A stretch of 27,237 bases of DNA from a virus. How positions within the stretch are numbered: the stretch's first letter is position 1; the number at the start of each line of letters is the position of its first letter. Shown piece by piece: positions 1 to 25,296 of this stretch. The notes below the pieces were generated by a model that did not search any database, was not told where the DNA came from, and was given only the letters and a program-made list of their open reading frames with translations. The position numbers were made by a program, and so were the translations under genes. The stretch lies in the IMG/VR virus record IMGVR_UViG_3300025137_000229, positions 1 to 27,237 of that record. One strand, 5' to 3'.

Positions 1-241
1 TGACACAGGATCAGAAAGCAATGTAGAGAAAGACAAAGGACACGTATCAGATGCTTTTAAAAGAGCTTGTGTTTCTTGGGGTGTTGGTAGGTTTTTATAT
101 AGGTTGCCTATTCAAACTTTGAAAACTAAAAAACATACTAATGGAAGAGAATATCCTTATGCACCTGAAAAAGACAAGATTATTTTTGATGGAGATACAC
201 TAACTAAATATATAAATTGGAAAATAAATAATAATAAATAA
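1..241 (+). CDS. Rad52/Sak-type single-strand annealing protein, C-terminal part (continues from 26985..27237 across the circular junction)
   Basis: The frame starting at nt 2 reads DTGSESNVEKDKGHVSDAFKRACVSWGVGRFLYRLP. This carries the SDAxKRA..WGxGRxLY signature of Rad52/Rad22-family phage annealases. Stop TAA at 239-241. Nt 1-29 duplicate 27209-27237. Confidence 0.85.
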   Translation, partial: DTGSESNVEKDKGHVSDAFKRACVSWGVGRFLYRLPIQTLKTKKHTNGREYPYAPEKDKIIFDGDTLTKYINWKINNNK

Positions 242-2812: not shown

Positions 2813-3172
2813 ATGCTTAAACCTATATATTCCAGTCAAGAGCATAAGGCTATTGTAGAACTATATATTAATATGTGTAAGGAGTTCGCTAAAGATGTTA
2901 GCAATAAGCATAAATACCATAATTTTTTAGATGTGATAGACACAATAATAGAGTACCATAATAACTATGGAAAAGGAATGAGAGAAGAAGGAAATTTTTA
3001 TGATTGGATAATGATTATACCAATAAATCTATCAGTAGCTATAAATGGGTTTTTTGCAGGATTAGAAACAAAAAGAAATGCAGCCACTATTAGAAGTTAT
3101 AAAGTTATATTGGAACAACTTTTGTATGAATCAGTAGAAAAGATAGATAATATAGAACCTACAAATGACTGA
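2813..3172 (+). CDS. Hypothetical early protein
   Basis: The ORF track starts at TTG 2807. The first ATG is at 2813. No family recognised. Confidence 0.65.
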   Translation: MLKPIYSSQEHKAIVELYINMCKEFAKDVSNKHKYHNFLDVIDTIIEYHNNYGKGMREEGNFYDWIMIIPINLSVAINGFFAGLETKRNAATIRSYKVILEQLLYESVEKIDNIEPTND

Positions 3173-3740
3173 TATATATACTGAAATATCTAAATTGACT
3201 GATAAATTTAGAACAATGTGTTTTGGCATAACTACTGATGAAAACAAAATACATAATGCAGTACAAGAGTTAATGCTGTATTTTTTACAAATGAATCCTG
3301 ATACATTAAAAAGTATATGGGAAAAAGATGGAAAGACAGGGATAATACGTTATGGAGCAGTAGTTTTAAGAAGAGCTTTAACAAGTCCAAGAAGTAATTT
3401 TTACTATAAGTATGAAAAATATTATAAGCATATTGATAGTTTTAATAGTAATGCTAGTCAGTCTATCACTAATATTGATTATGGAGGTGATGCTATTTAT
3501 TATAAGAATCTATCAAATATTTCTGAACAACAAGAAGAATATCATTGGACAAAATTAGAAGAGATAGATTTAATTTTAGACAAACAAACGTGGTATGATA
3601 AGAAGATATTTGAATTATATTATTCAGGAGAAACATTAGATAGTTTAGCTAATAAAACAAAGATAAGTAGAAACAGTTTATTCACAACAATAGATAAAGT
3701 AAGAACAATATTAAAAAAAGAATTAAATGAAGATATATGA
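3165..3740 (+). CDS. Sigma-70/ECF-like transcription factor (region 2-like N-terminus, region 4-like HTH C-terminus)
   Basis: The C-terminus WYDKKIFELYYSGETLDSLANKTKISRNSLFTTIDKVRTILKKEL fits the sigma region 4 pattern (vf.L.y..g.s..eiA...gis..tv...i..ar..lkk.l). The N-terminus HNAVQELMLYFLQ...GIIRYGAVVLRRALTSPRS is region 2-like. Confidence 0.55.
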   Translation: MTDIYTEISKLTDKFRTMCFGITTDENKIHNAVQELMLYFLQMNPDTLKSIWEKDGKTGIIRYGAVVLRRALTSPRSNFYYKYEKYYKHIDSFNSNASQSITNIDYGGDAIYYKNLSNISEQQEEYHWTKLEEIDLILDKQTWYDKKIFELYYSGETLDSLANKTKISRNSLFTTIDKVRTILKKELNEDI

Positions 3741-3803
3741 TCCTGTAAAAAATGATAGCTTTGTGATGATGTTTGGCTTTAAAAGTCCTAATTGGTAAAA
3801 GAA

Positions 3804-4208
3804 ATGAATAGGTTTTTTGTAGAAAATGAAGTCTATGAAGATAGAATAGAAATCTGTAAAGGATGTACTTACTATTACAAGCCAACAGGTAGCTGTAAGA
3901 TATGTATGTGCTTTATGAAAATCAAGGCACGTATAGCTAACCAATCTTGTCCTCAAAAGTATTGGCATAAAACATCAGAGGTTATGAAAGCTCCTGATGA
4001 TTTACCTCAAGAGATAATAGATGAAATATTAGATATGTGGAAAGACTTAAAAACAGGTAGAGCTAAAGATGTACAAGCCAAGAAAAAGATGATAGAAACA
4101 TACAACACAATTTACAACACTAATTATCAAACAGGTACTAATTGCGGTTCTTGTATATCTACTTGTTTTGATGGAATTAAAAAACTATATAAAAAATACA
4201 GCGAATGA
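3804..4208 (+). CDS. Cysteine-rich (putative zinc-binding) protein
   Basis: The track starts at TTG 3792. The first ATG is at 3804 (MNRFF). Cys cluster CKGCTYYYKPTGSCKICMCFMKIKARIANQSCPQKYW, plus C-terminal NCGSCISTC. Confidence 0.65.
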   Translation: MNRFFVENEVYEDRIEICKGCTYYYKPTGSCKICMCFMKIKARIANQSCPQKYWHKTSEVMKAPDDLPQEIIDEILDMWKDLKTGRAKDVQAKKKMIETYNTIYNTNYQTGTNCGSCISTCFDGIKKLYKKYSE

Positions 4209-4877: not shown

Positions 4878-5135
4878 ATGACACTATACAAATGTAAATG
4901 CGGTAATGAAGAAGAGATAGGAAAAACTACAATAGCTTTAAGAGATGGTAGATGGAGAACTATACAGGCTAAATGTATTTGCGGTTTATGGATGGAAAGT
5001 GAACCTGAAGAGGGTATGCCAAGTATAAGAAGAACAGAAGGATCATTAAGTAAAAAGAAGCAAGGAAATAGACTTTGGGATAGTGCTAAAGAAAAGCTAG
5101 TAGGAGAACGAGGAATTAATGAATCATTTGATTAA
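4878..5135 (+). CDS. Small zinc-ribbon-like protein
   Basis: Two Cys pairs (CKCG ... CICG) in 85 aa. Confidence 0.55.
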   Translation: MTLYKCKCGNEEEIGKTTIALRDGRWRTIQAKCICGLWMESEPEEGMPSIRRTEGSLSKKKQGNRLWDSAKEKLVGERGINESFD

Positions 5136-5518
5136 TGAACTTTGTAGTAAACACAACACAAGACAAGCAGACATTATTCAGCTACTTAAAAGAGTTAGGA
5201 ACTGATTATATAGTAAAGGTAAAGAAACAAAGAAACAATAGAAGCAATATGCAGAACAATTACTATTGGGCTTGTATAGTACAGCCATTAGCATCAGAGC
5301 TAGGTTACTTTCCTGATGAAATGCACGATACACTTAAAGTAAAGTTTGCTAGTGAATGGCAAAGCATAGAGATAAACGACAAACAGATAGGACTTCAAAC
5401 AGTAAACAGTACGGCAAGAATGAACACAAAAGACTTTGAGGTGTATGCAGATCAAATAAGGATATGGGCTTTAACAGAACTAGGTGTAAGACTAATGCTA
5501 CCAAATGAATTCAAGTAA
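5135..5518 (+). CDS. ninB: NinB/Orf-family recombination mediator
   Basis: VKVKKQRNNRSNMQNNYYWACIV aligns by eye with lambda NinB VTIQERNRSLDQNRKLWACLG. STARMNTKDFEVYADQIRIWALTELGV aligns with lambda STSRMRVGEFAELLELIQAFGTERGV. Confidence 0.7.
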   Translation: MNFVVNTTQDKQTLFSYLKELGTDYIVKVKKQRNNRSNMQNNYYWACIVQPLASELGYFPDEMHDTLKVKFASEWQSIEINDKQIGLQTVNSTARMNTKDFEVYADQIRIWALTELGVRLMLPNEFK

Positions 5519-5534
5519 TTTCTATTATATAGTA
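5502..5534 (+). promoter_or_regulatory. Late motif copy 1: CAAAT-N14-TCTATTATATAGTA
   Basis: CAAAT at 5502-5506 and the core at 5521-5534. It lies 27 nt upstream of ATG 5562. Confidence 0.55.
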
Positions 5535-5561: not shown

Positions 5562-5822
5562 ATGAATACACACGGAGGTAAAAGAACAGGAGCAGGTAGA
5601 AAGGCAAAAGCAGAAGAACAAAAGCTAATAGAGAATTTAACACCTATGAATGAAATGGCTTTAGATTCATTAAAAAAAGGATTAGAGAAAAAGGAACAAT
5701 GGGCAGTTAAGTTATTCTTTGAATACTTCTATGGTAGACCTCAGCAAAGAGTTGATGTTACAACTAATGAAGAAAGTCTTAATATGCCACTTATAACATT
5801 TATAGACCCTGAAACTGAGTAA
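5562..5822 (+). CDS. Small terminase-like protein (GGKRxGAGRK N-terminus)
   Basis: 86 aa, immediately upstream of and overlapping the TerL reading frame. The basic N-terminus MNTHGGKRTGAGRKAK is common in small DNA-binding proteins encoded next to TerL. Confidence 0.4.
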   Translation: MNTHGGKRTGAGRKAKAEEQKLIENLTPMNEMALDSLKKGLEKKEQWAVKLFFEYFYGRPQQRVDVTTNEESLNMPLITFIDPETE

Positions 5823-7011
5823 GAAATATAATCCACTATTCCAATCTGATGCACGTTATTTTATAATAACAGGTGGTAGAGGATCAGGTAAGTCTTTTGC
5901 AGTAACAGTCTTTCTTACTTTACTTACAATGACAGAAGGCATAAGAATACTATTTACAAGGTACACAATGACTTCAGCTCACTTATCAATCATTCCTGAG
6001 TTCCTGGAAAAGATAGGGTTATTAGGATATGAAGATGTATTTAACATAAACAAGTCTGAAGTAGTAAACACTAAAAACAAAAGTGATATACTATTTAGAG
6101 GTATTAAAACATCAGCAGGAAATCAGACAGCTAGTTTAAAATCATTAACAGGAGTTTCTAATTGGATTCTTGATGAAGCAGAAGAACTTATTGATGAAGA
6201 TATTTTTGACACAATAGACTTAAGTATTAGAGAAAAGAACATACAGAATAGGATTATACTTATACTGAATCCTGTTACAAAAGAACATTGGATATACAAT
6301 AGATTCTTTCAGAACAAAGGTGTAGAAGCAGGTTTTAATGGATTTAAAGACAATGTATGCTATATACATAGTACATACCTAGACAACAAAGATAATCTCT
6401 CTAAGAGCTTCTTAGAACGTATTAAAGACATAAAGCATAGAAACTTTAAGAAGTATCAGCATAAGATATTAGGGGGGTGGTTAGATAAAGCAGAAGGTGT
6501 TGTGTTTGAGAATTGGAGTATAGGAGAATTTAATCCTAATAACTTACAAACATCTTGCGGAATGGATTTTGGTTTCTCAGTCGATCCTGATAGTCTTGTT
6601 GAAGTAGCTATTGATAAAAAGCATAAGAAGATATATTTAAAAGAACATATATATAAGAATGGTTTAAAATCACACGATTTAGCTAAGATAGTTTTAGATA
6701 AGGTAGGTGATAAGCTTATAATAGCAGATTCAGCAGAACCAAGACTAATAGAAGATTTAAGACATTTAGGAGTTAACATAAAGCCTGTAAAGAAAGGAAC
6801 TATTGAAAGCGGAATAACAAGGATGTTAGATTATGAGTTAATAGTAACTCCTGAATCAACAAACATAGCTAAAGAAATGAATAACTATATATATGCAGAT
6901 AAAGGCTCTAAGTTATATGTAGACAATTACAATCATTCAATTGATGCTATCCGTTATAATTGCATATACCATTTAGATAATCCTAATGCTGGTAAATATT
7001 TTGTACAATAA
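5806..7011 (+). CDS. terL: Terminase large subunit (PBSX/Terminase_3-like); true start unresolved
   Basis: Walker A GGRGSGKS at 5872-5895 lies upstream of the first in-frame ATG (5929). Nuclease motifs are present: GMDFGFSVDPDS, ADSAEPRLIEDL, HSIDAIRY. The frame opens at 5806, after TAG at 5803-5805. There is no ATG/GTG/TTG before the Walker A box. Confidence 0.85.
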   Translation, partial: TLKLSKKYNPLFQSDARYFIITGGRGSGKSFAVTVFLTLLTMTEGIRILFTRYTMTSAHLSIIPEFLEKIGLLGYEDVFNINKSEVVNTKNKSDILFRGIKTSAGNQTASLKSLTGVSNWILDEAEELIDEDIFDTIDLSIREKNIQNRIILILNPVTKEHWIYNRFFQNKGVEAGFNGFKDNVCYIHSTYLDNKDNLSKSFLERIKDIKHRNFKKYQHKILGGWLDKAEGVVFENWSIGEFNPNNLQTSCGMDFGFSVDPDSLVEVAIDKKHKKIYLKEHIYKNGLKSHDLAKIVLDKVGDKLIIADSAEPRLIEDLRHLGVNIKPVKKGTIESGITRMLDYELIVTPESTNIAKEMNNYIYADKGSKLYVDNYNHSIDAIRYNCIYHLDNPNAGKYFVQ

Positions 7012-7046
7012 AAAAAGGGTGGTAATAAATACACACCCCCTTTTTG
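7011..7046 (+). terminator. Putative intrinsic terminator after terL
   Basis: A-run, then GGGTG (7017-7021), a loop, CACCC (7034-7038), then CC and TTTTT (7041-7045). Confidence 0.5.
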
Positions 7047-7085
7047 CAAGATTCACAACTAAAACGTGGCAAATATAAACATTTT

Positions 7086-7119
7086 AAACTAAATATCAAC
7101 TTTTTCTATTATATAGTAT
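7086..7119 (+). promoter_or_regulatory. Late motif copy 2 (core TCTATTATATAGTA 7105-7118; upstream half degenerate)
   Basis: The core is identical to the other copies. The upstream element reads AAACT rather than CAAAT. ATG 7120 follows the core after a single nt. Confidence 0.5.
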
Positions 7120-7764
7120 ATGAAGGTCAAAATTAAGAAGCAGGGCAAAGTAAAAGAGTTCAAGCTAATCAATAAGTGGTCAGATGTAACTCTTGAAAAA
7201 TGGTTAAAATTAATAGACTTTCATAATGGAAGTAAGAGTAGTGAAGCAACAGAAACAATAGCAGCTTTGTCTGATATTCCTAAGAAGCTAATAAAGCAAC
7301 TGGAATTAAAAGATGTAGCAGTTATAATGGGTAGAGTTGCTGAGTTACAACAGAAGCAGAATAGTTCTTTAAAAAAGATAATAGAGGTAGAGGGTAAAGA
7401 GTATGGGTTTCATCCTGATTTAGATAGTATAACATTAGGAGAATATGCAGATATAGAAACATTTATTAAGAATGATATTCAAAAGCATTTACCTGAATTG
7501 ATGGCAATACTTTATAGACCAATAACAGAACGTGGAGAAAATGGTGTATATACTATTGCAGCCTATGATGGTAATATACGGATTAGGACAGAGCAAATGA
7601 AGAAAATGTCAGCAGAGCAAGTGCAAAGTGCACTGGTTTTTTTTTATCATTTAGGGAACGTATTGTTAACGACTTTGCCATCATATTTGATGGATCGGCT
7701 CAAGGAAATGAAGATGCAGTCGCAACAGAATCCTTTGCAGAAAAATGGGGTTGGTTTGGAGTAA
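7120..7764 (+). CDS. Virion-assembly protein of unknown family; 0-frame product of a possible recoded gene
   Basis: 214-aa ORF, first gene of the long late operon. It contains a T9 run (7637-7645) at codons 173-176, where a long open -1 frame begins. Confidence 0.7.
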   Translation: MKVKIKKQGKVKEFKLINKWSDVTLEKWLKLIDFHNGSKSSEATETIAALSDIPKKLIKQLELKDVAVIMGRVAELQQKQNSSLKKIIEVEGKEYGFHPDLDSITLGEYADIETFIKNDIQKHLPELMAILYRPITERGENGVYTIAAYDGNIRIRTEQMKKMSAEQVQSALVFFYHLGNVLLTTLPSYLMDRLKEMKMQSQQNPLQKNGVGLE

Positions 7765-7901
7765 TGTATAGATTGACAAATGGTGAAATAGTAAACTTAG
7801 AAAGAATAACAAATCTTAGCTTGTTAGAATGTTTAACCTGGCTAAGTTATGAAACAGATTTAAACTCACAAAATAAAGTAAAATATGGCAGTAAGCAATA
7901 A
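7599..7901 (+). CDS. -1 frame extension of gene 7120 (100 open codons; first ATG only at 7764)
   Basis: The frame is open from 7599 to TAA at 7899-7901. It translates as ...GFFLSFRERIVNDFAIIFDGSAQGNEDAVATESFAEKWGWFGVMYRLTNGEIVNLERITNLSLLECLTWLSYETDLNSQNKVKYGSKQ. It is reachable from the 7120 frame by a -1 slip on G_GTT_TTT_TTT_A. Confidence 0.5.
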   Translation, partial: EENVSRASAKCTGFFLSFRERIVNDFAIIFDGSAQGNEDAVATESFAEKWGWFGVMYRLTNGEIVNLERITNLSLLECLTWLSYETDLNSQNKVKYGSKQ

Positions 7902-8433
7902 GACATATAATAACGTAGTTAATACAATAGCTAGACTAGGGCAATACCACGAACAAATATCTACAGTATCTATTGGAGATATATACGATATTAACTTAGA
8001 AAAGTTAGAGAAGTTTCCTTTGCTTCATATAAATCCAATAAGCGTAACAACAGGAGATTCACAGTTAGTATATAACTTTCAACTATTTATAATGGATATG
8101 GTAAGTGAAAAGAATGATTGGCAGACTAAACAACATTCAGAATTAACTAAGTTAATAGACACTAAAAGTAATGAGCAAGAAGTATTTAATCAATGCTTAG
8201 ATATAGCAACAGATTTTATAGGAATGTTAAGACATAGTTCAAGGCAATCACAAGAGGGTACAAATGATATTAATGCACCATTATACTTTACACAAGATCA
8301 GTTTACCATAGAGCCTTTCCAAGAAAGGTTTGACAATCTTTGTTGCGGTTGGGTGTTTCAAATAGGGGTTAAGGTTATGAATGACTTTGATACTTGTATA
8401 ATTCCTGTAACTGATTTAGGAGCAGGGTACTAA
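7885..8433 (+). CDS. Hypothetical virion/structural-module protein
   Basis: 182 aa with an ATGGCA start after an A-rich leader. No family recognised. Confidence 0.7.
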   Translation: MAVSNKTYNNVVNTIARLGQYHEQISTVSIGDIYDINLEKLEKFPLLHINPISVTTGDSQLVYNFQLFIMDMVSEKNDWQTKQHSELTKLIDTKSNEQEVFNQCLDIATDFIGMLRHSSRQSQEGTNDINAPLYFTQDQFTIEPFQERFDNLCCGWVFQIGVKVMNDFDTCIIPVTDLGAGY

Positions 8434-8500
8434 TGAAATTTAGAATAGGTAAATATAGAATAGAAATAGGATTTTTTAAAATAACAATAAAAATATAATT

Positions 8501-8950
8501 ATGGCAGATTTAGTAACAACCTTATCAGAAAGTGTAACCTTAAATGGTTCTGTAAGAGGTTCATCAAACTCAGTAACAACAACAGGAATAGTAGATGTAT
8601 TTGAAAGGATATTAACTTGTACCCATTCACAAACAACAACTGTAGCGGTTTTTAATTCAACACCTCACGGAGCAGCAGGTGCTTTAGATGTAGAAAATTG
8701 TAAGTATTTAAGGATAACAAATTTAAGTACAGATCAAGATATGAAAGTGGCTTTAGTTACTGCTAACACAAATTATCAAGTAACTGTAAGAGCAGGTGGT
8801 TCACATATACTTTTTCAAGCAGAAGAAGCATTAATAGGAGAAACAGATGCAAGTCCTGCTTTTCCAACATTAGAAGATATAGTTACTGTGCAAGTAAGAC
8901 CAGCAGCAACAACTGATGTGCAAGTAGAAGTGTTTGCAGGTCTTGTATAA
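8501..8950 (+). CDS. Hypothetical beta-rich structural protein
   Basis: 149 aa, Thr/Val-rich, with an ATGGCA start after an A-rich leader, which suggests high expression. Confidence 0.7.
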   Translation: MADLVTTLSESVTLNGSVRGSSNSVTTTGIVDVFERILTCTHSQTTTVAVFNSTPHGAAGALDVENCKYLRITNLSTDQDMKVALVTANTNYQVTVRAGGSHILFQAEEALIGETDASPAFPTLEDIVTVQVRPAATTDVQVEVFAGLV

Positions 8951-9477
8951 TGAAAACCGCTAATATAGAAAGGTACTTAAATAGCTTTGGTAAGCAAGTA
9001 GTAAATAGAGCAAAAGGCAATGTTCAAAAAGCTAAAGGAGGTGGAACGGCTTTAGAACAGTCTATACGTTTTGAAATTGTTACTGATAATGATGGCTTTA
9101 CAGTACAATTCTATATGGCAGATTATGGAACATTTGTAGATAAAGGTGTTTCAGGAAATAAACAACAACAAAAATTTAAAGATTATAAAGGCAAAGTTAT
9201 TACAAGTCCTTATAAATATACTACCAAACAACCACCACCAGGATTATTAGCTAAGTGGATAAGTAAAAAAGGAATAAAAGGAAGAGATAAAAAGTCAGGC
9301 AGATTTATAAGCAATATGTCTTTAGCTTTTATAATAGGTAGAAAAATTAAAAGAGATGGAATTAAAGGAATTAGTTTCTTTCAAAAACCATTAGGATTAG
9401 GACTTAAACAATTTGGAAAGGATTTATTAAGTAATGTAAAAGAAGATATAATAGAAGGTTTAACAACAGTAAAATAA
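8950..9477 (+). CDS. HK97 gp10-like head-tail joining/tail-completion protein (tentative)
   Basis: FGKQVVNRAKGNV.KAKGGGTALEQSIRFEI......V.FYMADYGTFVDKGVSG resembles the gp10-family pattern (ak.nap..tG.L..sI......v.....Ya.fvE.G). Confidence 0.45.
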   Translation: MKTANIERYLNSFGKQVVNRAKGNVQKAKGGGTALEQSIRFEIVTDNDGFTVQFYMADYGTFVDKGVSGNKQQQKFKDYKGKVITSPYKYTTKQPPPGLLAKWISKKGIKGRDKKSGRFISNMSLAFIIGRKIKRDGIKGISFFQKPLGLGLKQFGKDLLSNVKEDIIEGLTTVK

Positions 9478-10898
9478 TGGCATATTCAAATTCAACAATA
9501 GAACAACAACCACTTTACCAACAATTACCTGTTGGTCAAGAAATAATATTTGTAGTTTCTAACGTAAGTTTAGTATCTAATGAAACAAAAGTTAAGTTTT
9601 GTGCTGAAGTACATATAAGTGATTCTACACCACCAAATCCTAGTGTTGCTACACATTTAGTAGGAACATTTAAAACAACACCTAATAATGCAGGTGTTGG
9701 AATGTTTGACTTTAGAAATATTATTGAAAATTATGTATCAGCAGATAATCTAGCATCACAAGGAAGTTCTTATAAAGGAACAGTAGTTACACAAGTAAGT
9801 CCAAGACCTATACATATAGTAGATAAATATTCATTAAGCAATAACACAACTAGATATATGACTATGCAGTTATATGCGGAATATTTAGGGGCAGACCCAT
9901 TAAGACCAACAGTAGTTAGTAGAGCAACAGGTACTTCTGTTAATTCAGATTTATTTACTTTGTTTAATGGTTACTTAAAATATACAGATATACTCACTAT
10001 GGGTGGCACTAATAATCCTGCTGATTTTGGTTATAGCTTAAGCACTTTTAATTTAAGTTCGCAGACAGATAAGTTTCTTTCTAATGCACCTCAAACTCAA
10101 GAATGTCTTATTAATGATTATGGAACATTATCTTTTTTAGCCCCTAATGCTAATGTAGAACTAATATCTTTAACTTACAAAGATGTATTAGGAGATGTTA
10201 TTGGTACAGAAACTGTAAATAGAACAGAAGAAAATGGTGCTTATGATATTTTTACTTCAGATGTTGCAAATCAAATAATTCACTTTGGATGTTTTCCAGC
10301 AAACTTACAAAATTGGTCTACCCTATTTAACTCCTCAACTATTATAGATCATATTGAGGGAGGTTCTATAGAAGTACAAGCAAAAGACTTATCAGGAGGG
10401 AGAGAATCAGCAAGATATACTATTAATGTAAATTGTCCTAATCTTAAAGGTTATGAATCAATTAGACTTTGTTGGCTGAACCAATGGGGTGTTTGGGATT
10501 ACTATACATTTACTCAAAAATCAATAAGAAGTTTAACTACACAAGGAACTACATTTGAGCAATTAGAGGGTAGTTGGAATGAAAGCAGATATAGAATAGA
10601 TAGCTATAAAGGCGGAAAGAAAGCATTTAGAGTTAATTCTACCGAACGTATTTCTATGAATACAGATTTTGTTAGTGCAGACTTCAATACTATGTTTGAA
10701 GAATTAATTAACAGTCCTGAAGTTTATATGTTAGATGGTTATCAATCAGACACTTTATCTTCAGCTTTAAATCAATATGTAACTCCTGTAAGGCTTACAA
10801 CATCAAGCTTTACAAGAAAGACAATAGCCAATGACAAACTAATACAGTACACATTTGAAATAGAAAAGAGTAAAACACTAAGAACACAAGCGGTATAA
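9477..10898 (+). CDS. Virion structural protein (tail/baseplate-like, family unknown)
   Basis: 473 aa with a TAATG overlap. Ser/Thr/Asn-rich composition typical of tail proteins. Confidence 0.6.
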   Translation: MAYSNSTIEQQPLYQQLPVGQEIIFVVSNVSLVSNETKVKFCAEVHISDSTPPNPSVATHLVGTFKTTPNNAGVGMFDFRNIIENYVSADNLASQGSSYKGTVVTQVSPRPIHIVDKYSLSNNTTRYMTMQLYAEYLGADPLRPTVVSRATGTSVNSDLFTLFNGYLKYTDILTMGGTNNPADFGYSLSTFNLSSQTDKFLSNAPQTQECLINDYGTLSFLAPNANVELISLTYKDVLGDVIGTETVNRTEENGAYDIFTSDVANQIIHFGCFPANLQNWSTLFNSSTIIDHIEGGSIEVQAKDLSGGRESARYTINVNCPNLKGYESIRLCWLNQWGVWDYYTFTQKSIRSLTTQGTTFEQLEGSWNESRYRIDSYKGGKKAFRVNSTERISMNTDFVSADFNTMFEELINSPEVYMLDGYQSDTLSSALNQYVTPVRLTTSSFTRKTIANDKLIQYTFEIEKSKTLRTQAV

Positions 10899-13546
10899 TG
10901 AGCATACAACTAATAGTTTACCCACAAAGTTTTGATGGTTCACCTAATCCTATAACAGGTTCATCATCACAATTTATAGTAGATGGAATTAATTTTGCAA
11001 CAGTAAATACATCAACATCTTCTTTAAGTTTACCTGCACCTACTTTTACATCAGCTATAAGCAATATGTCAGTTATTCCTATTAATAGTTGGTATAGGTT
11101 TAGTGGAGATGGTTCAGCAGTTACAGAATCATCAGGAGCAATTACAATTGGAGCTTCAAAAGGTATCATACAACAAGTATCTAATTTATCAGTTGGAGTA
11201 ATGTATGATTTTACAATAGATGTTGGTACTTATGCTTCAACATTAGAATTACAACAATATACAGGAACAGTATTAAAAGCAACTTTTCCAATATCATCAT
11301 CAGGAATTACCACTATACAATTTGAAGCACAATCTACTGCTGATACACTTTTAATTTATAGCACAGCAACCAATGTTATAAATAGTATATCTGTATTAAA
11401 CTCATCAATACAACCATCAGGTGCTATACAGTTTTTAGGAAATGGTCAAGTTATTTGCGATTTATATGAAGATGAAGATATACCATTAAGTCTAAGTGTA
11501 GATGATTTTAAAAATGTAACTGAAAAAGTACAATCATATTCTAAAGCATTTAACTTACCAGGAACAAAAAGAAATAATAAAATATTTGACAATCTATTTT
11601 CAATAACAAGGTCAGATGATGGTGTTATTTTTAACCCTTATGTAAAGACACAATGTAAATTAAAGCAAGATGGCTTTATATTGTTTGAAGGCTATCTAAG
11701 AATGATAGATATACAAGATAAGCAAGGTGAAATAAGTTATAATGTAAACTTATATTCAGAGGTTGTAGCATTAGCAGATGTTTTGCAAGATAAAACATTT
11801 GATGAATTAAATTTTGATGAATTAGAACACGGCTACAACAAAACACAAATAAAAAATAGTTGGAATGATTCAGGAACCCCAATAACTTGGACTAATTCAG
11901 GAACTTCAGGTTTTAGAAATTTTGCCACATTAAAATATCCTTTTGTAAATTGGACTAATCAATGGGTTATAGCAAATAATCCTGGCGGCACTTCTGGTGC
12001 TACTGACCTTAATCCTCAACTTATATCTTTAGAACAAGCCTTTAGACCTTTTATAAATATTAAATATTTAATTGATAGAATATTTACACAAGATGAATTT
12101 CCTTTTAGTTATGAAAGCACTTTTTTTGAAACTGATGATTTTAAAAAATTATATATGGATTTCAATTGGGGTGGAAATGCAATGCCTTCTACTGAAAATC
12201 AGTATAATGGATTATGGCTATCAACAGGGAATAATGGTACAGGTTCTTTTAAAGAATTGAGATTACAACCAACATCATTATTAGGTCTAGCTAATTCTAC
12301 AGTTCCACCTAATTACAATACAAGTACATATATTATTACAGCTACAACAGATAATGAAATATATGATATTAGTTATAATTTTAAATTAGAAAACACAAAT
12401 ACAGGAATAGTTACAACTGTAGCTTGTAGGTGGATTCTTAATAGTACTACAGTAATAAATTTAATACCTTCTATTGCAGGTACATCCACTATAACTTATG
12501 CAGGTTCTTTTCAAATAGCACTTCAAACAGGAGATACTTTAGCTGCACAGTTTGATGCAACGGCACTTGTTAGACAACATCAAACCCTTGCAAGTTCTGT
12601 TGTTTTTGTTCAATCTAATAGTACAGTAACATCAGGAACATTAAAAACATTAAGAGGAGCATTAGGGCAATGGGAATTTTTAAAAGGGATAACTACTATG
12701 TTTAACTTAGTAAGTATTCCTGACAAAAGCAATCCTAATCATATTACGATAGAACCATATAATGATATATTTTTAGAAAACACGGATAGTAAGCAATTAA
12801 ATTGGACAGATAAAATAGATGTAAAAGAAATGAAGTTAGAGCCATTAACTGACTTGAATAAAAATACTATATTCAAATTTGTAGAAGATGATGATGATTT
12901 TGCATTTCAAAATTACAAACAACAAGTGCAAGGACATTTATACGGAAGTCAGAAATGGAACGCAGGTTCAGGGTTCACAATTTTGTCAGGTGAAAAAGAA
13001 ATAGTAGCAGAGCCTTTTGCAGCTACATTAATAAAACCATTAGCAGAACAGTTCTCAGGTTTTATAGTTCCTGCTATTTATTCTTATAATTCTGATGATG
13101 GAACTTCAGAGGGGTTTGACAACAGTCCTAGAATTATGTTTAATAATGGCATTAAAGAATTAGCTTCTTCTACTTATTATATACCTGCACAAAATGGGTT
13201 ATCTAGTGAAAACCAACCTGAATTTTTGCAATTTAGTCATTTAACAGATATACCTACTGTTGCAGGTACTACTATAGATTTTCATTTTGGAATTTGTCAA
13301 TTAATACAACCTATTGGGGTTTCTGTAACTGACAATTTATTTAATTTATATTGGCTACCTTATTTTGGAGAGCTATATAATGCAAACACAAGGACAATGA
13401 CAATTAAAGTTAACTTAACTCCTGGAGATATATCTACGTTTAGGTTTTATGATACAGTTATAATTAAAAATAGAGAATTTAGAGTTAATCAAATAGACTA
13501 TAAGCCAAACGACTTAGCAACAATAGAATTTATACTTATACCATAA
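10898..13546 (+). CDS. Large tail protein (882 aa; tail tip, hub or fibre-like)
   Basis: The largest ORF. TAATG overlaps on both sides. Ser/Thr/Asn/Gly-rich beta-type sequence. Confidence 0.6.
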   Translation: MSIQLIVYPQSFDGSPNPITGSSSQFIVDGINFATVNTSTSSLSLPAPTFTSAISNMSVIPINSWYRFSGDGSAVTESSGAITIGASKGIIQQVSNLSVGVMYDFTIDVGTYASTLELQQYTGTVLKATFPISSSGITTIQFEAQSTADTLLIYSTATNVINSISVLNSSIQPSGAIQFLGNGQVICDLYEDEDIPLSLSVDDFKNVTEKVQSYSKAFNLPGTKRNNKIFDNLFSITRSDDGVIFNPYVKTQCKLKQDGFILFEGYLRMIDIQDKQGEISYNVNLYSEVVALADVLQDKTFDELNFDELEHGYNKTQIKNSWNDSGTPITWTNSGTSGFRNFATLKYPFVNWTNQWVIANNPGGTSGATDLNPQLISLEQAFRPFINIKYLIDRIFTQDEFPFSYESTFFETDDFKKLYMDFNWGGNAMPSTENQYNGLWLSTGNNGTGSFKELRLQPTSLLGLANSTVPPNYNTSTYIITATTDNEIYDISYNFKLENTNTGIVTTVACRWILNSTTVINLIPSIAGTSTITYAGSFQIALQTGDTLAAQFDATALVRQHQTLASSVVFVQSNSTVTSGTLKTLRGALGQWEFLKGITTMFNLVSIPDKSNPNHITIEPYNDIFLENTDSKQLNWTDKIDVKEMKLEPLTDLNKNTIFKFVEDDDDFAFQNYKQQVQGHLYGSQKWNAGSGFTILSGEKEIVAEPFAATLIKPLAEQFSGFIVPAIYSYNSDDGTSEGFDNSPRIMFNNGIKELASSTYYIPAQNGLSSENQPEFLQFSHLTDIPTVAGTTIDFHFGICQLIQPIGVSVTDNLFNLYWLPYFGELYNANTRTMTIKVNLTPGDISTFRFYDTVIIKNREFRVNQIDYKPNDLATIEFILIP

Positions 13547-14406
13547 TGCCAACAATACCATATTTAAACGGATATTCCATAAAGCCTAAAACAGTTTCAG
13601 CAACAGGCACAGTTACATTTACGGATGGAACTAATGATATTATACCTAATCAACAGCAATGTGAGGTATATGGATTTACTTATGATAAAGCAACAGGTAC
13701 TTGTATGGCATATCAATATAATACAAATATAAATAGAAGTGTTGTTGATGAAAACAATAACATTCAAGGTTCAGATAATATAGTTCAGACAGGAACTAAT
13801 AACACCTATATAATGGGTGAAAATAATACTGTTAAAGGATTATCAAGGAATAATATAATTGCAGGAGTAAATAATGAGATAGAAAATAGTATTAATAATA
13901 CAGCAGTATTTGGTGTTGGTGGGCAAAGTATATTTAATAATGCTATGATTTTTGGTGGTAATAATCAAGATGATAGAGCAGGAACTAGACAAACAATAAA
14001 ATTAATGTATGGATGTCAAACAACTAACAATTCAACTACGGATAGCTTTCCAAACAACTCAGTAAATACAGAAGTATTTTTTAAGCCACAAGTCAATAGA
14101 GTTTATTATTTCCAATCAGAAACACTAGCTGTTAGAGTAGGAGGTACAAGTGCTTCAGGTGCAGTTGGAGATTTTAAGGCTTGGGTAGAACGAGGTGTTG
14201 TAAAGTGTAATGGAGTTGGTACATTAAGTATAGAAAGATCAAGAACATCACCTGCTAGTAGTGGAACAGTATCAGGGTGGAGTCCAATTAATGCAGTAAA
14301 TGTTGCAGATTTTAGACAAACAGTAAAAGGAGCGAATAATATGACAATAGAATGGGTAAGCACAATAAGATTTATGCAATTATTTACAGGGGTTACATTA
14401 CCATAA
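13546..14406 (+). CDS. Tail fibre/spike protein with Asn-rich beta-helix-like repeats
   Basis: Repeated N.I.G.NN motifs (NNIQGSDNIVQTGTNNTYIMGENNTVKGLSRNNIIAGVNNEIENSINNTAVFGVGGQSIFNNAMIFGGNNQ). Confidence 0.55.
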   Translation: MPTIPYLNGYSIKPKTVSATGTVTFTDGTNDIIPNQQQCEVYGFTYDKATGTCMAYQYNTNINRSVVDENNNIQGSDNIVQTGTNNTYIMGENNTVKGLSRNNIIAGVNNEIENSINNTAVFGVGGQSIFNNAMIFGGNNQDDRAGTRQTIKLMYGCQTTNNSTTDSFPNNSVNTEVFFKPQVNRVYYFQSETLAVRVGGTSASGAVGDFKAWVERGVVKCNGVGTLSIERSRTSPASSGTVSGWSPINAVNVADFRQTVKGANNMTIEWVSTIRFMQLFTGVTLP

Positions 14407-14419
14407 AAAAAATAAAGAT

Positions 14420-15835
14420 ATGGCAGATAAAATAGTAGTAGAAGCAGAAGTTAAATCAAATATAGGTGAAATATCAGAAGATGCAAGTTCATTAGCAGGA
14501 GAGTTTAAAATAATGGGTGTTTCTTTAAATTCTGTTAAAGCAGGATTTGTATCAATTGGCAAAACAGCAAAAGCATCATTTGCAACTATAAAGGCAGGTA
14601 TTGCTTCAACAGGAATAGGGTTTTTAGTAATTGCTTTTGGTTCCTTAGTAACATTTTTTACTAAGACTAAAAAAGGAGCTGAAATATTAGAAGTAGCATT
14701 TGCAGGGTTAGGAGCAGCCGTAAGTGTTATAGTAGATAGAGTATCTAAATTTGGAGGTGCTATTGTAAAGCTGTTTCAAGGTGATGCTAAAGGTGCTTTA
14801 CAAGATGTTAAAGGAGCATTTACAGGTATTGGAGATGAAATTGCGAATGATACAAGACAAGCTATTGAATTAAAAAAAGCATTTCAAGATTTAAGAGATA
14901 GCGAAAGAAGCTTAAATGTAGAAACTGCACAAAGAAGGGCAGAAATAGAAGCATTAAAATTAATAGCAGAAGATGTAAGTAAATCAGAAGAAGTCAGATT
15001 AAAAGCAGCACAAGATGCTTTTGCAATAGAAAATAAATTATTAGCTGATAGAGTAGCTAATGCAGAAGAAGCAGTAAGAATACAAAAAGAGCAAAACGAA
15101 ATAAATCAAAGTATGGATGTTGATTTAGATGCTCTAGCACAAAAAGAAATAGATTTAGCAAACATAAAAGCAGAATCTACTACAAAACAAATTGAACTAA
15201 ATAATAAAATCAATGCAATTCAAGCGGAATCAGCAGCAACAAGACTTGCAGAATTAGAAGCCTTAAAAGAAGCAGATGCTATAAGAATGGGTGAACTTAC
15301 AGAAATGCCTAGATTAGCAACTGAAGTCAATGACCAATTAATACAAGCTGATGAAAATTATACTAATATTGTTATGGGTAATGCTAAGAAAAGAACAGAT
15401 TACAATAAACAATTACAAAATCAACAGTTAGCTGCAACAGCAAGTTTTGCAGGAGCATTAAGTTCATTAGCAGGACAAAATAAACAGTTAGCAGCAGCAG
15501 AAGCTTTAATTAATACATATTTAGCAGTACAGCAAACTATGGCAGATAAGGCTATACCATCAACTGCAATAAAATTCTTAACAGCAGGAACAGTATTGGC
15601 TAGTGGTTTAGCTAATGTACGTAGAATATACTCTACTCCTGTGCCTGGCGGTGGCGGAGGTGGTGGTGGTGTAGTTGCTGCTGAAACTCAAACTCCTGCT
15701 CCTCAAATGATGTCAGGAGCATTTGAATTAAGTGGAGGTCAAGCACCTGAACCATTAAGAGCTTACGTATTAACTGATGAAATGACTAACAGTCAAAACC
15801 AATTAGCAAACATAAGAAGAAGAGCAACAATTTAA
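14420..15835 (+). CDS. Tape-measure-like or internal virion protein (hydrophobic segments, long coiled coil, Gly8 linker)
   Basis: Hydrophobic stretches (GIASTGIGFLVIAFGSLVTFF, AFAGLGAAVSVIV). Ala/Glu/Lys/Gln-rich helical middle. PGGGGGGGV encoded at about 15652-15675. Confidence 0.45.
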   Translation: MADKIVVEAEVKSNIGEISEDASSLAGEFKIMGVSLNSVKAGFVSIGKTAKASFATIKAGIASTGIGFLVIAFGSLVTFFTKTKKGAEILEVAFAGLGAAVSVIVDRVSKFGGAIVKLFQGDAKGALQDVKGAFTGIGDEIANDTRQAIELKKAFQDLRDSERSLNVETAQRRAEIEALKLIAEDVSKSEEVRLKAAQDAFAIENKLLADRVANAEEAVRIQKEQNEINQSMDVDLDALAQKEIDLANIKAESTTKQIELNNKINAIQAESAATRLAELEALKEADAIRMGELTEMPRLATEVNDQLIQADENYTNIVMGNAKKRTDYNKQLQNQQLAATASFAGALSSLAGQNKQLAAAEALINTYLAVQQTMADKAIPSTAIKFLTAGTVLASGLANVRRIYSTPVPGGGGGGGGVVAAETQTPAPQMMSGAFELSGGQAPEPLRAYVLTDEMTNSQNQLANIRRRATI

Positions 15836-15839: not shown

Positions 15840-15872
15840 CAAATAAATATTAATTTAATCTATTATATAGTA
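15840..15872 (+). promoter_or_regulatory. Late motif copy 3: CAAAT-N14-TCTATTATATAGT followed directly by ATG
   Basis: CAAAT at 15840-15844. The core starts at 15859. The A of ATG 15872 completes the 14-nt core. Confidence 0.55.
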
Positions 15873-16594
15873 TGCCTTGTGAAAAATGTAAAGATGGAAA
15901 AGTAAAATGGGGAAAGACAGGAAGCTGTGAGTATGACACAATAGCTGAATGTGAAGAAGCCAATAAAGACTATTATGAAAAGACTACTTCTATTGTAGAA
16001 TTAGTTATTAATGATGATAGTCAAGAATTAGCGATAGATGCAATTAGTTTAGTGTCATCACCTGCTATTGAACAAGACTTTGTGTTCTTTGGTAAAGAGA
16101 AAAACAACTTGACTTTTGCTAAAGTAGATGAAGAAAAGAGAATGTTAGTATCACCTGCTTTAATACCAAACAAACAGATATTTAGATATGATCCTAATAC
16201 TGATTCAGAATACTATGTTTACTTTAGCCCTGAAACAGTAAAAAAATCTTCTGAACTTTATTTAAAACATAACAATCATCATAAAGCTACATACGAACAC
16301 AACGAAAGAGTTTCAGGTGTATTAACAACTGAGAGTTGGATAATTGAAGATCCTAAAATGGATAAGTCAAGACTTTATGGCTACAACTTACCAAAAGGTA
16401 CTTGGATGGTTTCTATGAAAATAAATAATTCAGATTTATGGAATAAGATAAAAGCAGGGGAATTAAAAGGTCTTTCTATAGAAGGTTACTTTACTGATAA
16501 AATGGAAAAGATGTCAGAAAAAGAACCAACTGATGAAGAAATACTATCAGCACTTAACGAAATAATAAACGAAAATCAAACAAACTCAAAATAA
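15872..16594 (+). CDS. XkdF-like prohead serine protease
   Basis: LVSSPAIEQDFVFF...EKRMLVSPALIPNKQI.R........YYVYFSPETVKKSSELYLKH......T.EHN......V...ESWIIED...DKS......PKGTWMVSMKI.N.DLW..IKAGELKGLSIEG matches my recollection of the XkdF/Peptidase_S78_2 family. It lies just upstream of scaffold and capsid. Confidence 0.75.
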   Translation: MPCEKCKDGKVKWGKTGSCEYDTIAECEEANKDYYEKTTSIVELVINDDSQELAIDAISLVSSPAIEQDFVFFGKEKNNLTFAKVDEEKRMLVSPALIPNKQIFRYDPNTDSEYYVYFSPETVKKSSELYLKHNNHHKATYEHNERVSGVLTTESWIIEDPKMDKSRLYGYNLPKGTWMVSMKINNSDLWNKIKAGELKGLSIEGYFTDKMEKMSEKEPTDEEILSALNEIINENQTNSK

Positions 16595-16607
16595 ATCTAT
16601 TATATTA
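16577..16607 (+). promoter_or_regulatory. Late motif copy 4 (variant): CAAAC-N14-TCTATTATATTA
   Basis: CAAAC at 16577-16581 and the core at 16596-16607. It lies 11 nt upstream of ATG 16619. Confidence 0.45.
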
Positions 16608-16618
16608 AAAAAGAAACT

Positions 16619-17361: not shown

Positions 17362-18291
17362 ATGGCAATAGCAGTAACTAGTTCATATGCGGGGAAAAGC
17401 GCTGGATTCTATATCGCAGCCGCTTTAAAAGAAGCAAAATCATTAGACTTTTTAACGCAAATGAATAACGTGCGTTTTAAGAGTGCAATCCAAACTATGG
17501 CAAACTCAGGTTTCGTTAGAAATGCAACTTGTGATTTCACAGAGAACGGAACACTTACGATGAACGAAAAGGTGATTGAAGTAAAACCACTACAAATTAA
17601 TATTGATTTGTGCAAAAAATCTTTAGTGAGCAGCTGGGAATCGCTAGAGATGAGAGGAGCTTATGGTAATCCTCCTGTTTCATTCACTGATTATGTAATA
17701 TCGTATATGGGAAGCATTATCGCTGATGCAACTGAAACAGGTGTATGGCAAGATAATAATGGTAATGGAGAATTAACAACATCATTCTTACAAGCAGCAG
17801 GTTTATTATTACCTGGTACTGATGCAACAGTTATTCAATCAGCAGCATCAGGAGCTTATACAACAGCTAACATTATAGCTAACTTACAAACTTTAACAGC
17901 AGATATGGCAACTAATGTTCCTGCAATATTAGGAAAAGAAGATACTCATATTTATATGAACTCTAAAACATATGCTCTATATATCTCAGCAGTATCTACA
18001 TTAGGATATGTTAATGCTTACAATATGAATGGTGATTATGAGCCTGTATTTGAAGGATACAAAATTGCAGTTTGTCCAGGAATGATTGACAATCAATTAG
18101 TAGCAGCTCAAAAATCTAATTTATTCTGGGGGACAGATTTAGTTTCTGATTTAGGAACAGATGGAACAGGACCTTCTATAAAAATTATGGATATGTCAGA
18201 TCTTGATGGTTCAGATAATTTAAGATGTGTAGCTCGTTATTCTGGTGCAGTTCAAACAGGAATTGGAGCTGATATTGTAAGACAGTCGTAA
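17362..18291 (+). CDS. Major capsid protein
   Basis: 309 aa, directly after the scaffold. It has a strong A-rich leader (aaaaataaaaaattATGGC) and is followed by a hairpin terminator. The HK97-like fold is inferred from context only. Confidence 0.7.
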   Translation: MAIAVTSSYAGKSAGFYIAAALKEAKSLDFLTQMNNVRFKSAIQTMANSGFVRNATCDFTENGTLTMNEKVIEVKPLQINIDLCKKSLVSSWESLEMRGAYGNPPVSFTDYVISYMGSIIADATETGVWQDNNGNGELTTSFLQAAGLLLPGTDATVIQSAASGAYTTANIIANLQTLTADMATNVPAILGKEDTHIYMNSKTYALYISAVSTLGYVNAYNMNGDYEPVFEGYKIAVCPGMIDNQLVAAQKSNLFWGTDLVSDLGTDGTGPSIKIMDMSDLDGSDNLRCVARYSGAVQTGIGADIVRQS

Positions 18292-18306
18292 TAAATTAAT
18301 TCAAGA

Positions 18307-18335
18307 AGCAGGGGTGTAAAAACCCTTGCTACTTT
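18307..18335 (+). terminator. Putative intrinsic terminator after the capsid gene
   Basis: An 8-bp stem AGCAGGGG/CCCTTGCT (one G-U pair) with an 8-nt loop. The downstream T tract is weak. Confidence 0.5.
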
Positions 18336-18976: not shown

Positions 18977-19005
18977 AGGGTGGGCATTGTCCACCTTTTT
19001 CTTTT
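18977..19005 (+). terminator. Intrinsic terminator
   Basis: GGTGG (18979-18983), 7-nt loop, CCACC (18991-18995), then TTTTTCTTTT. Confidence 0.75.
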
Positions 19006-19011: not shown

Positions 19012-19044
19012 CAAATAAAAACAGACTTTTTCTATTATATAGTA
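19012..19044 (+). promoter_or_regulatory. Late motif copy 5: CAAAT-N14-TCTATTATATAGT followed directly by ATG
   Basis: CAAAT at 19012-19016. The core starts at 19031. ATG at 19044. Confidence 0.55.
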
Positions 19045-19523
19045 TGATACAAGCAATTACTGAAACTAATTTAACGACTTATCTTCAAACAGAGGACAAT
19101 CGTATAGACACTTCAGTTAGTTCTGACAAGATAAGATACTTAGTAAAATTCACTAATGATATGGATAAGTCAATACAATATGCTTATTCAACAGTTCATT
19201 TAATATACAACAGATACACTAAGTTTGTGTTTGATTATAATGCTACTCCTGATGTTTATACAGGCAAAGTTAATTTTTTACCTGCGGGATTTTGGAAATA
19301 CGAAGTTTATGAAGTAAGTTGGACTGGAGCAGTGGCTATAAGCTCAGGAAACGCACCTGTAACAGAAGATGATGTTTTACCAATAGGAGCTACCCACGGA
19401 GTAGTTCAAGGGCTTGTAACAAAAGGAAAAATGTATGTAGCAGAGAAGTCAGGAACAGAACAAGTACAATACACACAAAGGCAAGAGCCAAGTGGCACAA
19501 ATTATATATATTACGGACAATAA
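19044..19523 (+). CDS. Hypothetical structural-module protein
   Basis: 159 aa, first gene after late motif copy 5. Confidence 0.65.
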   Translation: MIQAITETNLTTYLQTEDNRIDTSVSSDKIRYLVKFTNDMDKSIQYAYSTVHLIYNRYTKFVFDYNATPDVYTGKVNFLPAGFWKYEVYEVSWTGAVAISSGNAPVTEDDVLPIGATHGVVQGLVTKGKMYVAEKSGTEQVQYTQRQEPSGTNYIYYGQ

Positions 19524-19534
19524 AAAATTAAAAA

Positions 19535-19986: not shown

Positions 19987-19987
19987 T

Positions 19988-21625: not shown

Positions 21626-21627
21626 TT

Positions 21628-21954: not shown

Positions 21955-21964
21955 AATATAAAAT

Positions 21965-23968: not shown

Positions 23969-23970
23969 CT

Positions 23971-25294: not shown

Positions 25295-25296
25295 TT

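Follow-up and report, generated by a model that had tools for sequence, protein, structure and literature searches.

Five copies of a family-specific bipartite motif as predicted late promoters for a phage-encoded sigma factor in uncultured marine phages

Results

Genome organisation and gene content

The window, by which we mean the whole 27,237-nt stretch of DNA that was analysed, carries the same 29 nt at both of its ends (positions 1-27,237) and therefore represents a complete, circularly closed genome of 27,208 bp. Its G+C content is 30%, all genes are on the + strand, and no Shine-Dalgarno sequences were seen in the whole genome. A megablast search with 25 kb of the window against 50,697 phage records returned no match. 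When the portal protein was searched against annotated phages by tblastn, the Nonlabens (Persicivirga) phages P12024S and P12024L were the only matches, at ~32% identity. IMG/VR contains at least 597 relatives with portals 73-97% identical to that of the window, mostly on contigs of 27-30 kb. The window and its relatives form an abundant uncultured marine phage family that is distantly related to Nonlabens phage P12024S. The family fits the 'group 1' putative Flavobacteriaceae phages of Nishimura et al. (PMC5332604).

ORF family searches and gene content were used to divide the genome into an early and a late region. The early genes encode a Rad52-family protein that spans the junction, an SSB, a replication-initiator-like protein, homologues of NinG and NinB and several small proteins of unknown function. 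The late genes encode a TerS-like protein, TerL, a long tail/structural block, an XkdF-type prohead protease, scaffold-like and capsid-candidate proteins, a tail protein and the portal. The regions and the individual genes referred to below are as follows.

26468, across the junction, to 5518, + strand: early region
3165-3740, + strand: candidate phage sigma factor, 191 aa, ECF-like, from remote homology and predicted structure
3792-4208, + strand: Cys-rich small early protein (DUF6171), conserved, from family search and relatives
4878-5135, + strand: small early protein, conserved in relatives
5562-26197, + strand: late region
25297-25488, + strand: weak holin-family match (PHROG E 4e-4)

Five copies of a bipartite motif precede the late gene blocks

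The exact 14-mer TCTATTATATAGTA is present four times in the window, starting at 5521, 7105, 15859 and 19031 and always on the + strand, compared to none in 100 dinucleotide-preserving shuffles. When two mismatches were allowed, nine matches were obtained against 4.4 expected, which is no longer above chance, and the signal therefore resides in the exact copies. A fifth copy with one mismatch, TCTATTATATTAAA, starts at 16596 on the + strand. An earlier note on this DNA, made from the sequence alone, had given the letters and coordinates of all five copies correctly, together with CAAAT located 19 nt 5' of the core at 5502, 15840 and 19012 and CAAAC at 16577. The upstream element of the copy at 7086 had been called weak in that note; it reads AAACTAAA, the form in which 60 relatives conserve this site. 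All five copies are intergenic and each precedes a late gene block. As had been proposed, the gene map places them before the TerS-like/TerL pair, the 7120-15835 block, the protease, the scaffold and capsid genes and the 19044-26197 block. Both the word 'late' and the statement that the copies head every transcription unit are drawn from this gene content. A generic scan of the window for sigma-70 promoters and terminators performed no better than on shuffled sequences. The five copies, read as predicted promoters, are listed here; the predicted start points are explained below.

5502-5534, + strand: predicted late promoter copy 1, with an A-rich -35-like element at 5503-5509 and the core TCTATTATATA at 5521-5531; predicted +1 at A 5534, next gene TerS-like (ATG 5562) and then TerL, leader 28 nt
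7086-7118, + strand: predicted late promoter copy 2, with AAACTAAA at 7086-7093 and the core at 7105-7115; predicted +1 at A 7118, ATG at 7120 (2-nt leader), heading the 7120-15835 structural/tail block
15840-15872, + strand: predicted late promoter copy 3, with CAAATAAA at 15840-15847 and the core at 15859-15869; predicted +1 at the A of ATG 15872 (leaderless), next gene the prohead protease (Peptidase_S78_2)
16577-16609, + strand: predicted late promoter copy 4, with CAAACAAA at 16577-16584 and the variant core TCTATTATATT at 16596-16606; predicted +1 at A 16609, ATG at 16619 (10-nt leader), heading the scaffold-like and capsid genes
19012-19044, + strand: predicted late promoter copy 5, with CAAATAAA at 19012-19019 and the core at 19031-19041; predicted +1 at the A of ATG 19044 (leaderless), heading the 19044-26197 block (tail protein, portal and lysis genes)

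The motif is conserved at orthologous places in relatives

For the analysis of conservation, 160 loci that surround the portal and TerL genes were taken from relatives; together with the window they amount to 1.66 Mb. In this set, the exact 11-mer TCTATTATATA was found 243 times on the + (coding) strand compared to 14 times on the - strand. The + strand sites fall in the same five orthologous gaps as in the window, with varying flanks and spacer, and one nearly complete relative has exactly five exact copies in the same five places. Relatives also have a sixth site, before a small gene encoding MKQQVK..., which is absent from the window. Every close relative examined carries the motif before the orthologous genes, as the earlier note had asked of a real promoter class. 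Removal of identical contexts left 228 distinct sites; since the loci are related, these are counts of non-independent events, uncorrected for phylogeny. With one mismatch allowed, 263 matches were found on the - strand of the relatives. They and the 14 exact - strand cases were set aside, since they arise either where a true site is palindromic, wholly or in part, and is read in reverse, or from coding sequence that related loci have in common.

Positions within the site are given relative to the first nucleotide of the core. Across the 228 sites, core-18 is A in 224 and core-17 is A in 225, core-16 is A or C, core-15 is T or C, and core-14 to core-12 are A. This A-rich element is followed by a spacer that has no conserved letters and then by TT directly before the core. 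On the 3' side, core+11 is free, core+12 is T in 181 of the 228 sites and core+13 is A in 209. The conserved unit is thus the 11-mer with T/A at +12/+13 rather than the full 14-mer that had been taken as the core. Since the core columns were chosen by the search itself and the flanking columns were not, the independent evidence lies in the latter; the flanking columns and the contrasts between clades are the only evidence that is free of search bias. The alignment suggests AA[A/C]YAAA-N11-TCTATTATATA-N-YR as the promoter matrix of the family. Of the sigma-70-like -35/-10 geometry that had been suggested for the window sites, the bipartite arrangement stands, and an ECF-type assignment, with AA(A/C) at core-18 to -16, N16 and CTA at core+1 to +3, fits better.

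The distance to the start codon is characteristic of each place. Copy 1 has orthologues in 27 distinct relatives; with one exception, 40-43 nt separate the core start from the ATG. Of the 60 distinct orthologues of copy 2, 35 place the ATG at core+15 and eight at core+13. For copy 3 the ATG is at core+13 in 26/29, and the MPC..C codons are conserved. The 28 orthologues of copy 4 have either the A form or the T form at core+10. The 49 orthologues of copy 5 have the ATG 13-16 nt from the core start (32 sites) or 26 nt from it (12 sites) and always encode M-I-Q. Taken together, conservation at five orthologous places argues for the dedicated middle/late promoter class that the earlier note had proposed.

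Transcription is predicted to start at core+13

Among orthologous sites the distance from the core start to the ATG ranges from 13 to 46 nt and is never below 13, and core+13 is the most frequent ATG position. Four sites that seemed to have the ATG at core+10 or core+11 were register artefacts or chance matches of the one-mismatch search. A distance that varies in this way speaks against a translation signal with a fixed position relative to the start codon. In 95 sites the ATG lies 19 nt or farther from the core start; of these, 93 have a purine at core+13 and 80 a pyrimidine at core+12. Pyrimidine-purine at -1/+1 is the usual preference of bacterial polymerases, and the presence of a purine at core+13 even where the ATG is distant places +1 at core+13. 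The first codons after the ATGs show protein-level conservation with synonymous changes (MPC..C in the protease and MIQ in the gene at 19044) and no alternative starts were found upstream, which indicates that these ATGs are the real starts. Transcription would then begin on the AUG or at most 2 nt before it at copies 3, 5 and 2, so that the messages from copies 3 and 5 (0-nt leader) and copy 2 (2 nt) are predicted to be leaderless or nearly so. In Flavobacterium psychrophilum, leaderless messages make up only 5.5% of mapped mRNAs (PMC9723704), and leaderless late messages would be out of the ordinary for this group of hosts, should the prediction hold. Because host flavobacteria so seldom use them, their efficient translation in a flavobacterial host is assumed here.

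Predicted terminators and a host-type early promoter at the boundaries of the proposed units

The following features lie at the boundaries of the proposed units.

18977-19005, + strand: intrinsic terminator, a hairpin followed by TTTTTCTTTT, ending the capsid unit (folding z = -4.1)
7013-7046, + strand: weaker terminator-like hairpin (A-tract, stem, T-tract), after TerL and 5' of copy 2 (-11.9 kcal/mol, z = -1.8)
~26406-26436, + strand: host-type (Bacteroidota sigma-A) early promoter, TTG-N20-TATCTTTG, from consensus match

Two copies had been described as lying just downstream of hairpin terminators. This holds well for the strong hairpin at 18977-19005, which ends 7 nt 5' of the -35-like element of copy 5, and less well for the one at 7013-7046. 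Before copy 5, the terminator is present in 24 relatives, in which the stem sequences differ, the pairing is kept and the T-tract is conserved. With a strong, conserved terminator at this place, upstream transcription is expected to stop and new initiation is needed. The early promoter is located in the 270-nt gap at 26198-26467, which has three TAnnTTTG boxes (the others at 26222 and 26389), one of them with TTG at a 20-nt spacer; its -7 box starts 39 nt 5' of the first early ORF (26468). The Bacteroidota primary-sigma consensus consists of TTG at -33 and TAnnTTTG at -7, ~19 nt apart (PMC9723704). This combination was found at none of the five late sites, and a host-type promoter was rejected there. 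The late motif is thus unlike the Bacteroidota promoter of the early gap, as the earlier note had observed.

ORF 3165-3740 encodes a probable divergent sigma factor

Two other ways of switching to late transcription were considered and rejected. For a T7-like single-subunit RNA polymerase, no ORF matched an RNA polymerase family; just one ORF has a suitable size (882 aa), and it belongs to the tail block and can be aligned with a portion of the P12024S tail-region protein. A T4-type late system does not agree with the fixed upstream element, and PHROG scans of all ORFs gave no sigma factor, co-activator or clamp.

The phage sigma-like gene that had been postulated has a candidate in ORF 3165-3740, homologues of which are present in 20/20 relatives covering the region. 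More than 2,000 metagenomic homologues were found, several of them named 'sigma-70 family' or 'sigma24' by JGI. Pfam and PHROGs searches with the protein of the window gave no match, Sigma70_r2 and r4 included, and a sequence search of the PDB with a narrow, closely related profile gave noise and no sigma factor. In the AlphaFold model, residues 1-86 and 130-186 form two helical domains, and a linker of ~40 residues with pLDDT < 50 connects them. In a Foldseek search of the whole model against the PDB, the best ~33 matches were all sigma factors, mostly of the ECF type (SigL, RpoE, SigH, SigW, AlgU), with a best E of 7e-3, probability up to 1.0 and TM-scores of ~0.3, which are low because the two domains are freely placed in the model. 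The predicted structure thus has the overall two-domain fold of a sigma factor. The N-terminal domain modelled alone (pLDDT 83) gave best TM-scores of 0.5-0.6 to ECF sigma-2 domains, at non-significant E of 4-9.

Sequence comparison through homologues gave a similar picture. Sub-threshold Pfam matches were obtained to Sigma70_r4 in 21/30 homologues (best E 7e-4) and to Sigma70_r4_2 in 18/30 (best E 1e-4). A broad profile that included distant homologues from a search of 1.84 billion proteins matched the RpoE chain 9n9q_C over both domains (E 0.007); ten distant homologues from that search were all below the Pfam thresholds. The N-terminal 47 residues align to P12024S gp33, which is annotated with PF04542 (hhalign E 2e-4, probability 47%). 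Each of these tests is weak and they are concordant, suggesting that ORF 3165-3740 probably encodes a divergent ECF-like sigma factor.

The motif changes together with the sigma-like gene

In P12024S, the core TCTATTATATA is absent. P12024S and its relatives instead have AAAC-N17-CGTTAATATA-nn-ATG before orthologous late genes, the protease homologue included. The P12024S gp33 gene, annotated as Sigma-70 region 2, is syntenic with ORF 3165-3740. The motif of this clade has textbook ECF geometry (AAC, ~17 nt, CGT), and the ATG lies 12 nt after the C in P12024S as in the window (C at core+1, ATG at core+13).

Co-variation of motif and sigma was analysed in 50 loci encoding more distant sigma homologues. 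The exact core was present in only 2/50 (L312 and L313), directly before ATGs, and the sigma of these loci is 55% identical to that of the window. It was absent from the 48 loci whose sigma is at most 47% identical. One clade of the latter has ACAAATAA-N8-TTATATTTATTAGTA-ATG before a tail-block gene, as judged from upstream regions read by eye, and no clear motif was recognised in a P0143-like clade (L292, L304). K-mer counting for the motifs of the distant clades was too noisy in DNA of 30% GC. These contrasts suggest that the motif tracks sigma factors of the 3165-3740 type across clades.

The full bipartite pattern was also used to scan IMG/VR and 185,579 cellular genomes. Among the IMG/VR matches listed there were at least 117 new loci, of which 111 belong to this family, and many had two same-strand copies. 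The cellular genomes had single scattered matches in unrelated A/T-rich taxa and no locus with more than one copy. Three family matches among them were phage contigs binned into unrelated MAGs and were discarded as clues to the host. The enrichment in the phage family and the scattered cellular singles indicate that the motif belongs to the phage lineage and not to a host regulon.

Alternative explanations of the motif

The main alternative is that the five sites are promoters read by a host sigma factor, primary or ECF, perhaps together with a small phage activator or appropriator, and that the product of ORF 3165-3740 is otherwise employed. The conserved small early proteins encoded at 3792-4208 (DUF6171) and 4878-5135 could be such activators, the sigma call on ORF 3165-3740 is weakly supported by each single test, and the P12024S-clade motif resembles an ordinary flavobacterial ECF promoter of the form AAC-N17-CGT. 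However, the late motif lacks TTG/TAnnTTTG, the scan of cellular genomes yielded neither a multi-copy locus nor a host regulon, and variation of the motif clade by clade with the phage sigma-like gene would be unexpected for a host factor. We consider this explanation unlikely.

The core could also be the operator of a dimeric phage repressor or activator instead of a polymerase recognition element. In some relatives the site is indeed a perfect 16-bp palindrome, TCTATTAT·ATAATAGA, which explains part of the - strand matches. However, the copies in the window itself are non-palindromic, and conservation is one-sided, with the left 11 bp invariant, +11 free and +12/+13 conserved only as pyrimidine-purine. 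The second element at a fixed offset and the start codon pinned at +13 suit a promoter better, and an operator is improbable.

Still less probable is a motif that acts in RNA, as a processing site or translation enhancer, with the late genes transcribed by read-through from the early promoter. Such a role would suit the core abutting the ATG at 3/5 sites in a genome that has no Shine-Dalgarno sequences. It does not sit well with a core-ATG distance that varies from 13 to 46 nt among orthologous sites, an A-rich element at constant DNA distance with a spacer of non-conserved sequence in between, the conserved terminator between copy 5 and upstream transcription, or regions that do not fold. That the repeats are other DNA signals (packaging sites, origin iterons or recombination hot-spots at module boundaries) is hardly credible, since five dispersed, co-oriented copies before gene starts are unlike a single pac/cos or clustered iterons and the start-codon offset has a sharp lower bound at +13, even though the sites coincide with module boundaries.

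Discussion

A model for late transcription in the family

The motif lies at five orthologous places with two elements at a fixed spacing, and it occurs together with a sigma-like gene. We consider it probable that the five sites are late promoters of one family-specific class read by the phage's own sigma factor. In the model that we propose, host polymerase with the host primary sigma would start at the TTG/TAnnTTTG promoter near 26430 and transcribe the recombination and replication genes and ORF 3165-3740 as early genes. The product of this ORF would bind host core polymerase and direct it to the bipartite sites. There, its C-terminal helix-turn-helix domain may read the A-rich AA(A/C)YAAA at core-18 to -12, and its N-terminal domain may read and open the invariant (T)CTATTATATA. 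The first transcribed nucleotide would be the conserved core+13 purine, which follows the C of the core by ~12 nt, and the protease, tail-block and portal-block messages would be leaderless or nearly so, with +1 on the A of the ATG or 2 nt earlier. The promoter function, the factor that reads the sites, the start point and the timing are all predictions from sequence comparison. Against a reading by the phage sigma, the CTA and AAA/AAC letters differ from the canonical AAC/CGT of ECF promoters, and an invariant stretch of 11 bp is more than ECF sigmas usually need.

Comparison with known systems

It is well known that a phage-encoded sigma factor can switch host polymerase to a few late promoters (T4, SPO1, phiEco32). 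Phage sigmas that redirect host polymerase to near-identical late promoters include T4 gp55 and SPO1 gp28 with gp33/34. T4 late promoters have TATAAATA at -10 and no -35 element, and are read by gp55 with gp33 and the sliding clamp. They resemble the window sites in that an A/T-rich, highly conserved element in the -10 region, unlike the host consensus, marks late genes; the window sites differ in having a fixed upstream element. Leaderless mRNAs with a -10 element directly 5' of the ATG are found in Actinobacteria and Deinococcus and in the lambda cI message from PRM. As in these systems, the start codon is at the predicted +1 and the promoter element at a fixed short distance 5' of it. In contrast, the host group here is rarely leaderless (5.5%), and leaders of 0 to ~30 nt would occur within one promoter class.

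The gp36 sigma of phage phiEco32 reads middle/late promoters whose consensus, TAATGTATA, was established by experiment according to PMC4331800; phage 7-11 is related. The proposed scheme is similar in that a host-type early promoter would be followed by a divergent phage sigma working with host core polymerase, and in that a handful of near-identical A/T-rich sites precede the later genes. The hosts differ, Enterobacteria there and Bacteroidota here, and the motifs are unrelated. To our knowledge, neither a fixed upstream element nor a start codon at +1 has been reported for phiEco32.

Motif SM6 of Flavobacterium psychrophilum has a CGT box at -10 and is of the ECF (group 4) type AAC-N16/17-CGT (PMC9723704). 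Like ECF promoters, the window sites are bipartite with rigid spacing, AA(A/C)-N16-CTA, and would have their start ~12 nt downstream of the first -10 base; two elements at a rigid spacing were seen throughout the 228 sites. The candidate sigma resembles ECF sigmas in its two domains and ~190 aa. The sites differ from ECF promoters in having CTA instead of CGT, in AAA being commoner than AAC and in an invariant 11 bp that reaches -3, and the factor differs in being phage-encoded, with no anti-sigma partner identified. The sites in the window have AAA(T/C) or AAAC together with CTA, and the canonical AAC-N17-CGT occurs in the P12024S clade only.

P12024S shares with the window the gene order, the orthologous late genes, a sigma-like gene a few genes 5' of TerL and a layout in which the ATG lies 12 nt after the C of the -10 element. 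It differs in a portal that is ~32% identical, a sigma of 159 aa that lacks the long linker, another core sequence and a spacer 1-2 nt longer. As far as we searched, the literature that mentions P12024S describes no promoters of this phage, and a full-text literature search for the core sequence gave no relevant paper. What is new here is the phage lineage, the motif and the apparent position of +1 on the start codon.

Implications for marine flavobacterial phages

Marine Flavobacteriaceae phages are ecologically important and mostly uncultured, and we know of nothing on the timing of their gene expression. The sigma candidate, the promoter matrix and the predicted start nucleotide together make up a model of regulation that can be tested in a family known from hundreds of metagenomic genomes. 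For annotation, true start codons could be placed at core+13 and late genes recognised in fragments. The sigma and its promoters are also a candidate orthogonal pair for use in a phylum where the usual expression tools do not work, and the predicted leaderless late messages are of interest to translation specialists. A broader proposal is speculative: that the family and its P12024S-like cousins couple their own sigma factors to promoters with +1 on the start codon, and so make much of the late proteome from leaderless messages. If true, these messages could reach the ribosome by a route of their own, in a host phylum without Shine-Dalgarno pairing that seldom uses leaderless mRNAs, and Bacteroidota genetics would gain a compact, portable sigma/promoter pair.

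Genome ends and early genes

The first and last 29 nt of the window (1-29 and 27209-27237) are identical (TGACACAGGATCAGAAAGCAATGTAGAGA). This terminal identity indicates that the window is a circularly closed assembly and that the complete genome is 27,208 bp. One ORF spans the junction:

~26984 across the junction to ~240: ORF of the Rad52/22 family (Pfam E 1e-9)

The family also conserves three early proteins other than the product of ORF 3165-3740, the probable ECF-like phage sigma factor that would read the bipartite late motif; these three are the obvious alternative candidates for the regulator:

584-1093: early protein, part of which looks by eye like the C-terminal helix-turn-helix of DnaA
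3792-4208: small Cys-rich early protein, DUF6171
4878-5135: small Cys-rich early protein with a CxC...CxC pattern

Probable TerL start codon and other possible signals in the late region

The terminase gene TerL follows the TerS-like gene. Its Walker A motif (GGRGSGKS) and the rest of its N-terminus are encoded upstream of the first ATG (5929), within window 5806-5931. The frame is open from 5806, and no ATG, GTG or TTG precedes 5929. A CTG at 5809 overlaps the 3' end of the TerS-like gene and is kept in relatives, some of which have TTG at this position. When TerL was begun at CTG 5809, the full Terminase_3 match was regained (profile positions 2-200 of 201). Hence TerL probably starts at the CTG, coupled to the upstream TerS-like gene.

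In the gap between TerL and the first gene of the tail block (7120), a host-type TTG-N19-TATATTTG was observed on the minus strand (window 7047-7077), directed back into TerL. It might serve as an antisense promoter or be no more than a chance match. Further downstream, a short G+C-rich hairpin (GCAGGGGTGTAAAAACCCTTGC; window 18305-18330) lies just 3' of the capsid-candidate gene (17362-18291), inside the predicted unit of that gene, and may act as a partial terminator or as a stabiliser that raises the level of the capsid message.

Variation of the motif among relatives

In many relatives the motif occurs a sixth time, immediately 5' of a small gene (MKQQVK...) located after the early genes and ahead of the TerS-like gene (e.g. 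L002:19728, L088:917 and L091:8185); this small gene is absent from the window. Some relatives have at the motif site a 16-bp palindrome, perfect or nearly so (TCTATTATATAATAGA; e.g. L098:2131 and L005:8296), of which only the left 11 bp are conserved family-wide.

Contigs of this phage family (29 and 36 kb) were also found deposited within MAGs labelled Methanobacteriota archaeon and Pseudooceanicola sp. (L263, PBGL02000003.1; L276/L279, PAPR01000004.1). Almost certainly they were placed there by a binning artefact, and they do not constitute evidence of host.

Nonlabens phage P12024S (L161: 167, 3019, 5400, 23949, 25189) and its relatives (L163-L168) have a bipartite motif, AAAC-N17-CGTTAATATA-nn-ATG, ahead of late genes. 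Its layout is the same as that of the window motif, and its letters are those of a classical ECF promoter. P12024S gp33 is annotated as containing Sigma-70 region 2, and no description of the P12024S motif was found in the literature searched or inspected.

The clade of L292 and L304 encodes a sigma homologue ~35% identical to that of the window. TCTATTATATA was absent from this clade, and no cognate motif for the homologue was identified there. GGAG-like sequences precede many of the clade's genes, so these phages may infect a different host group.
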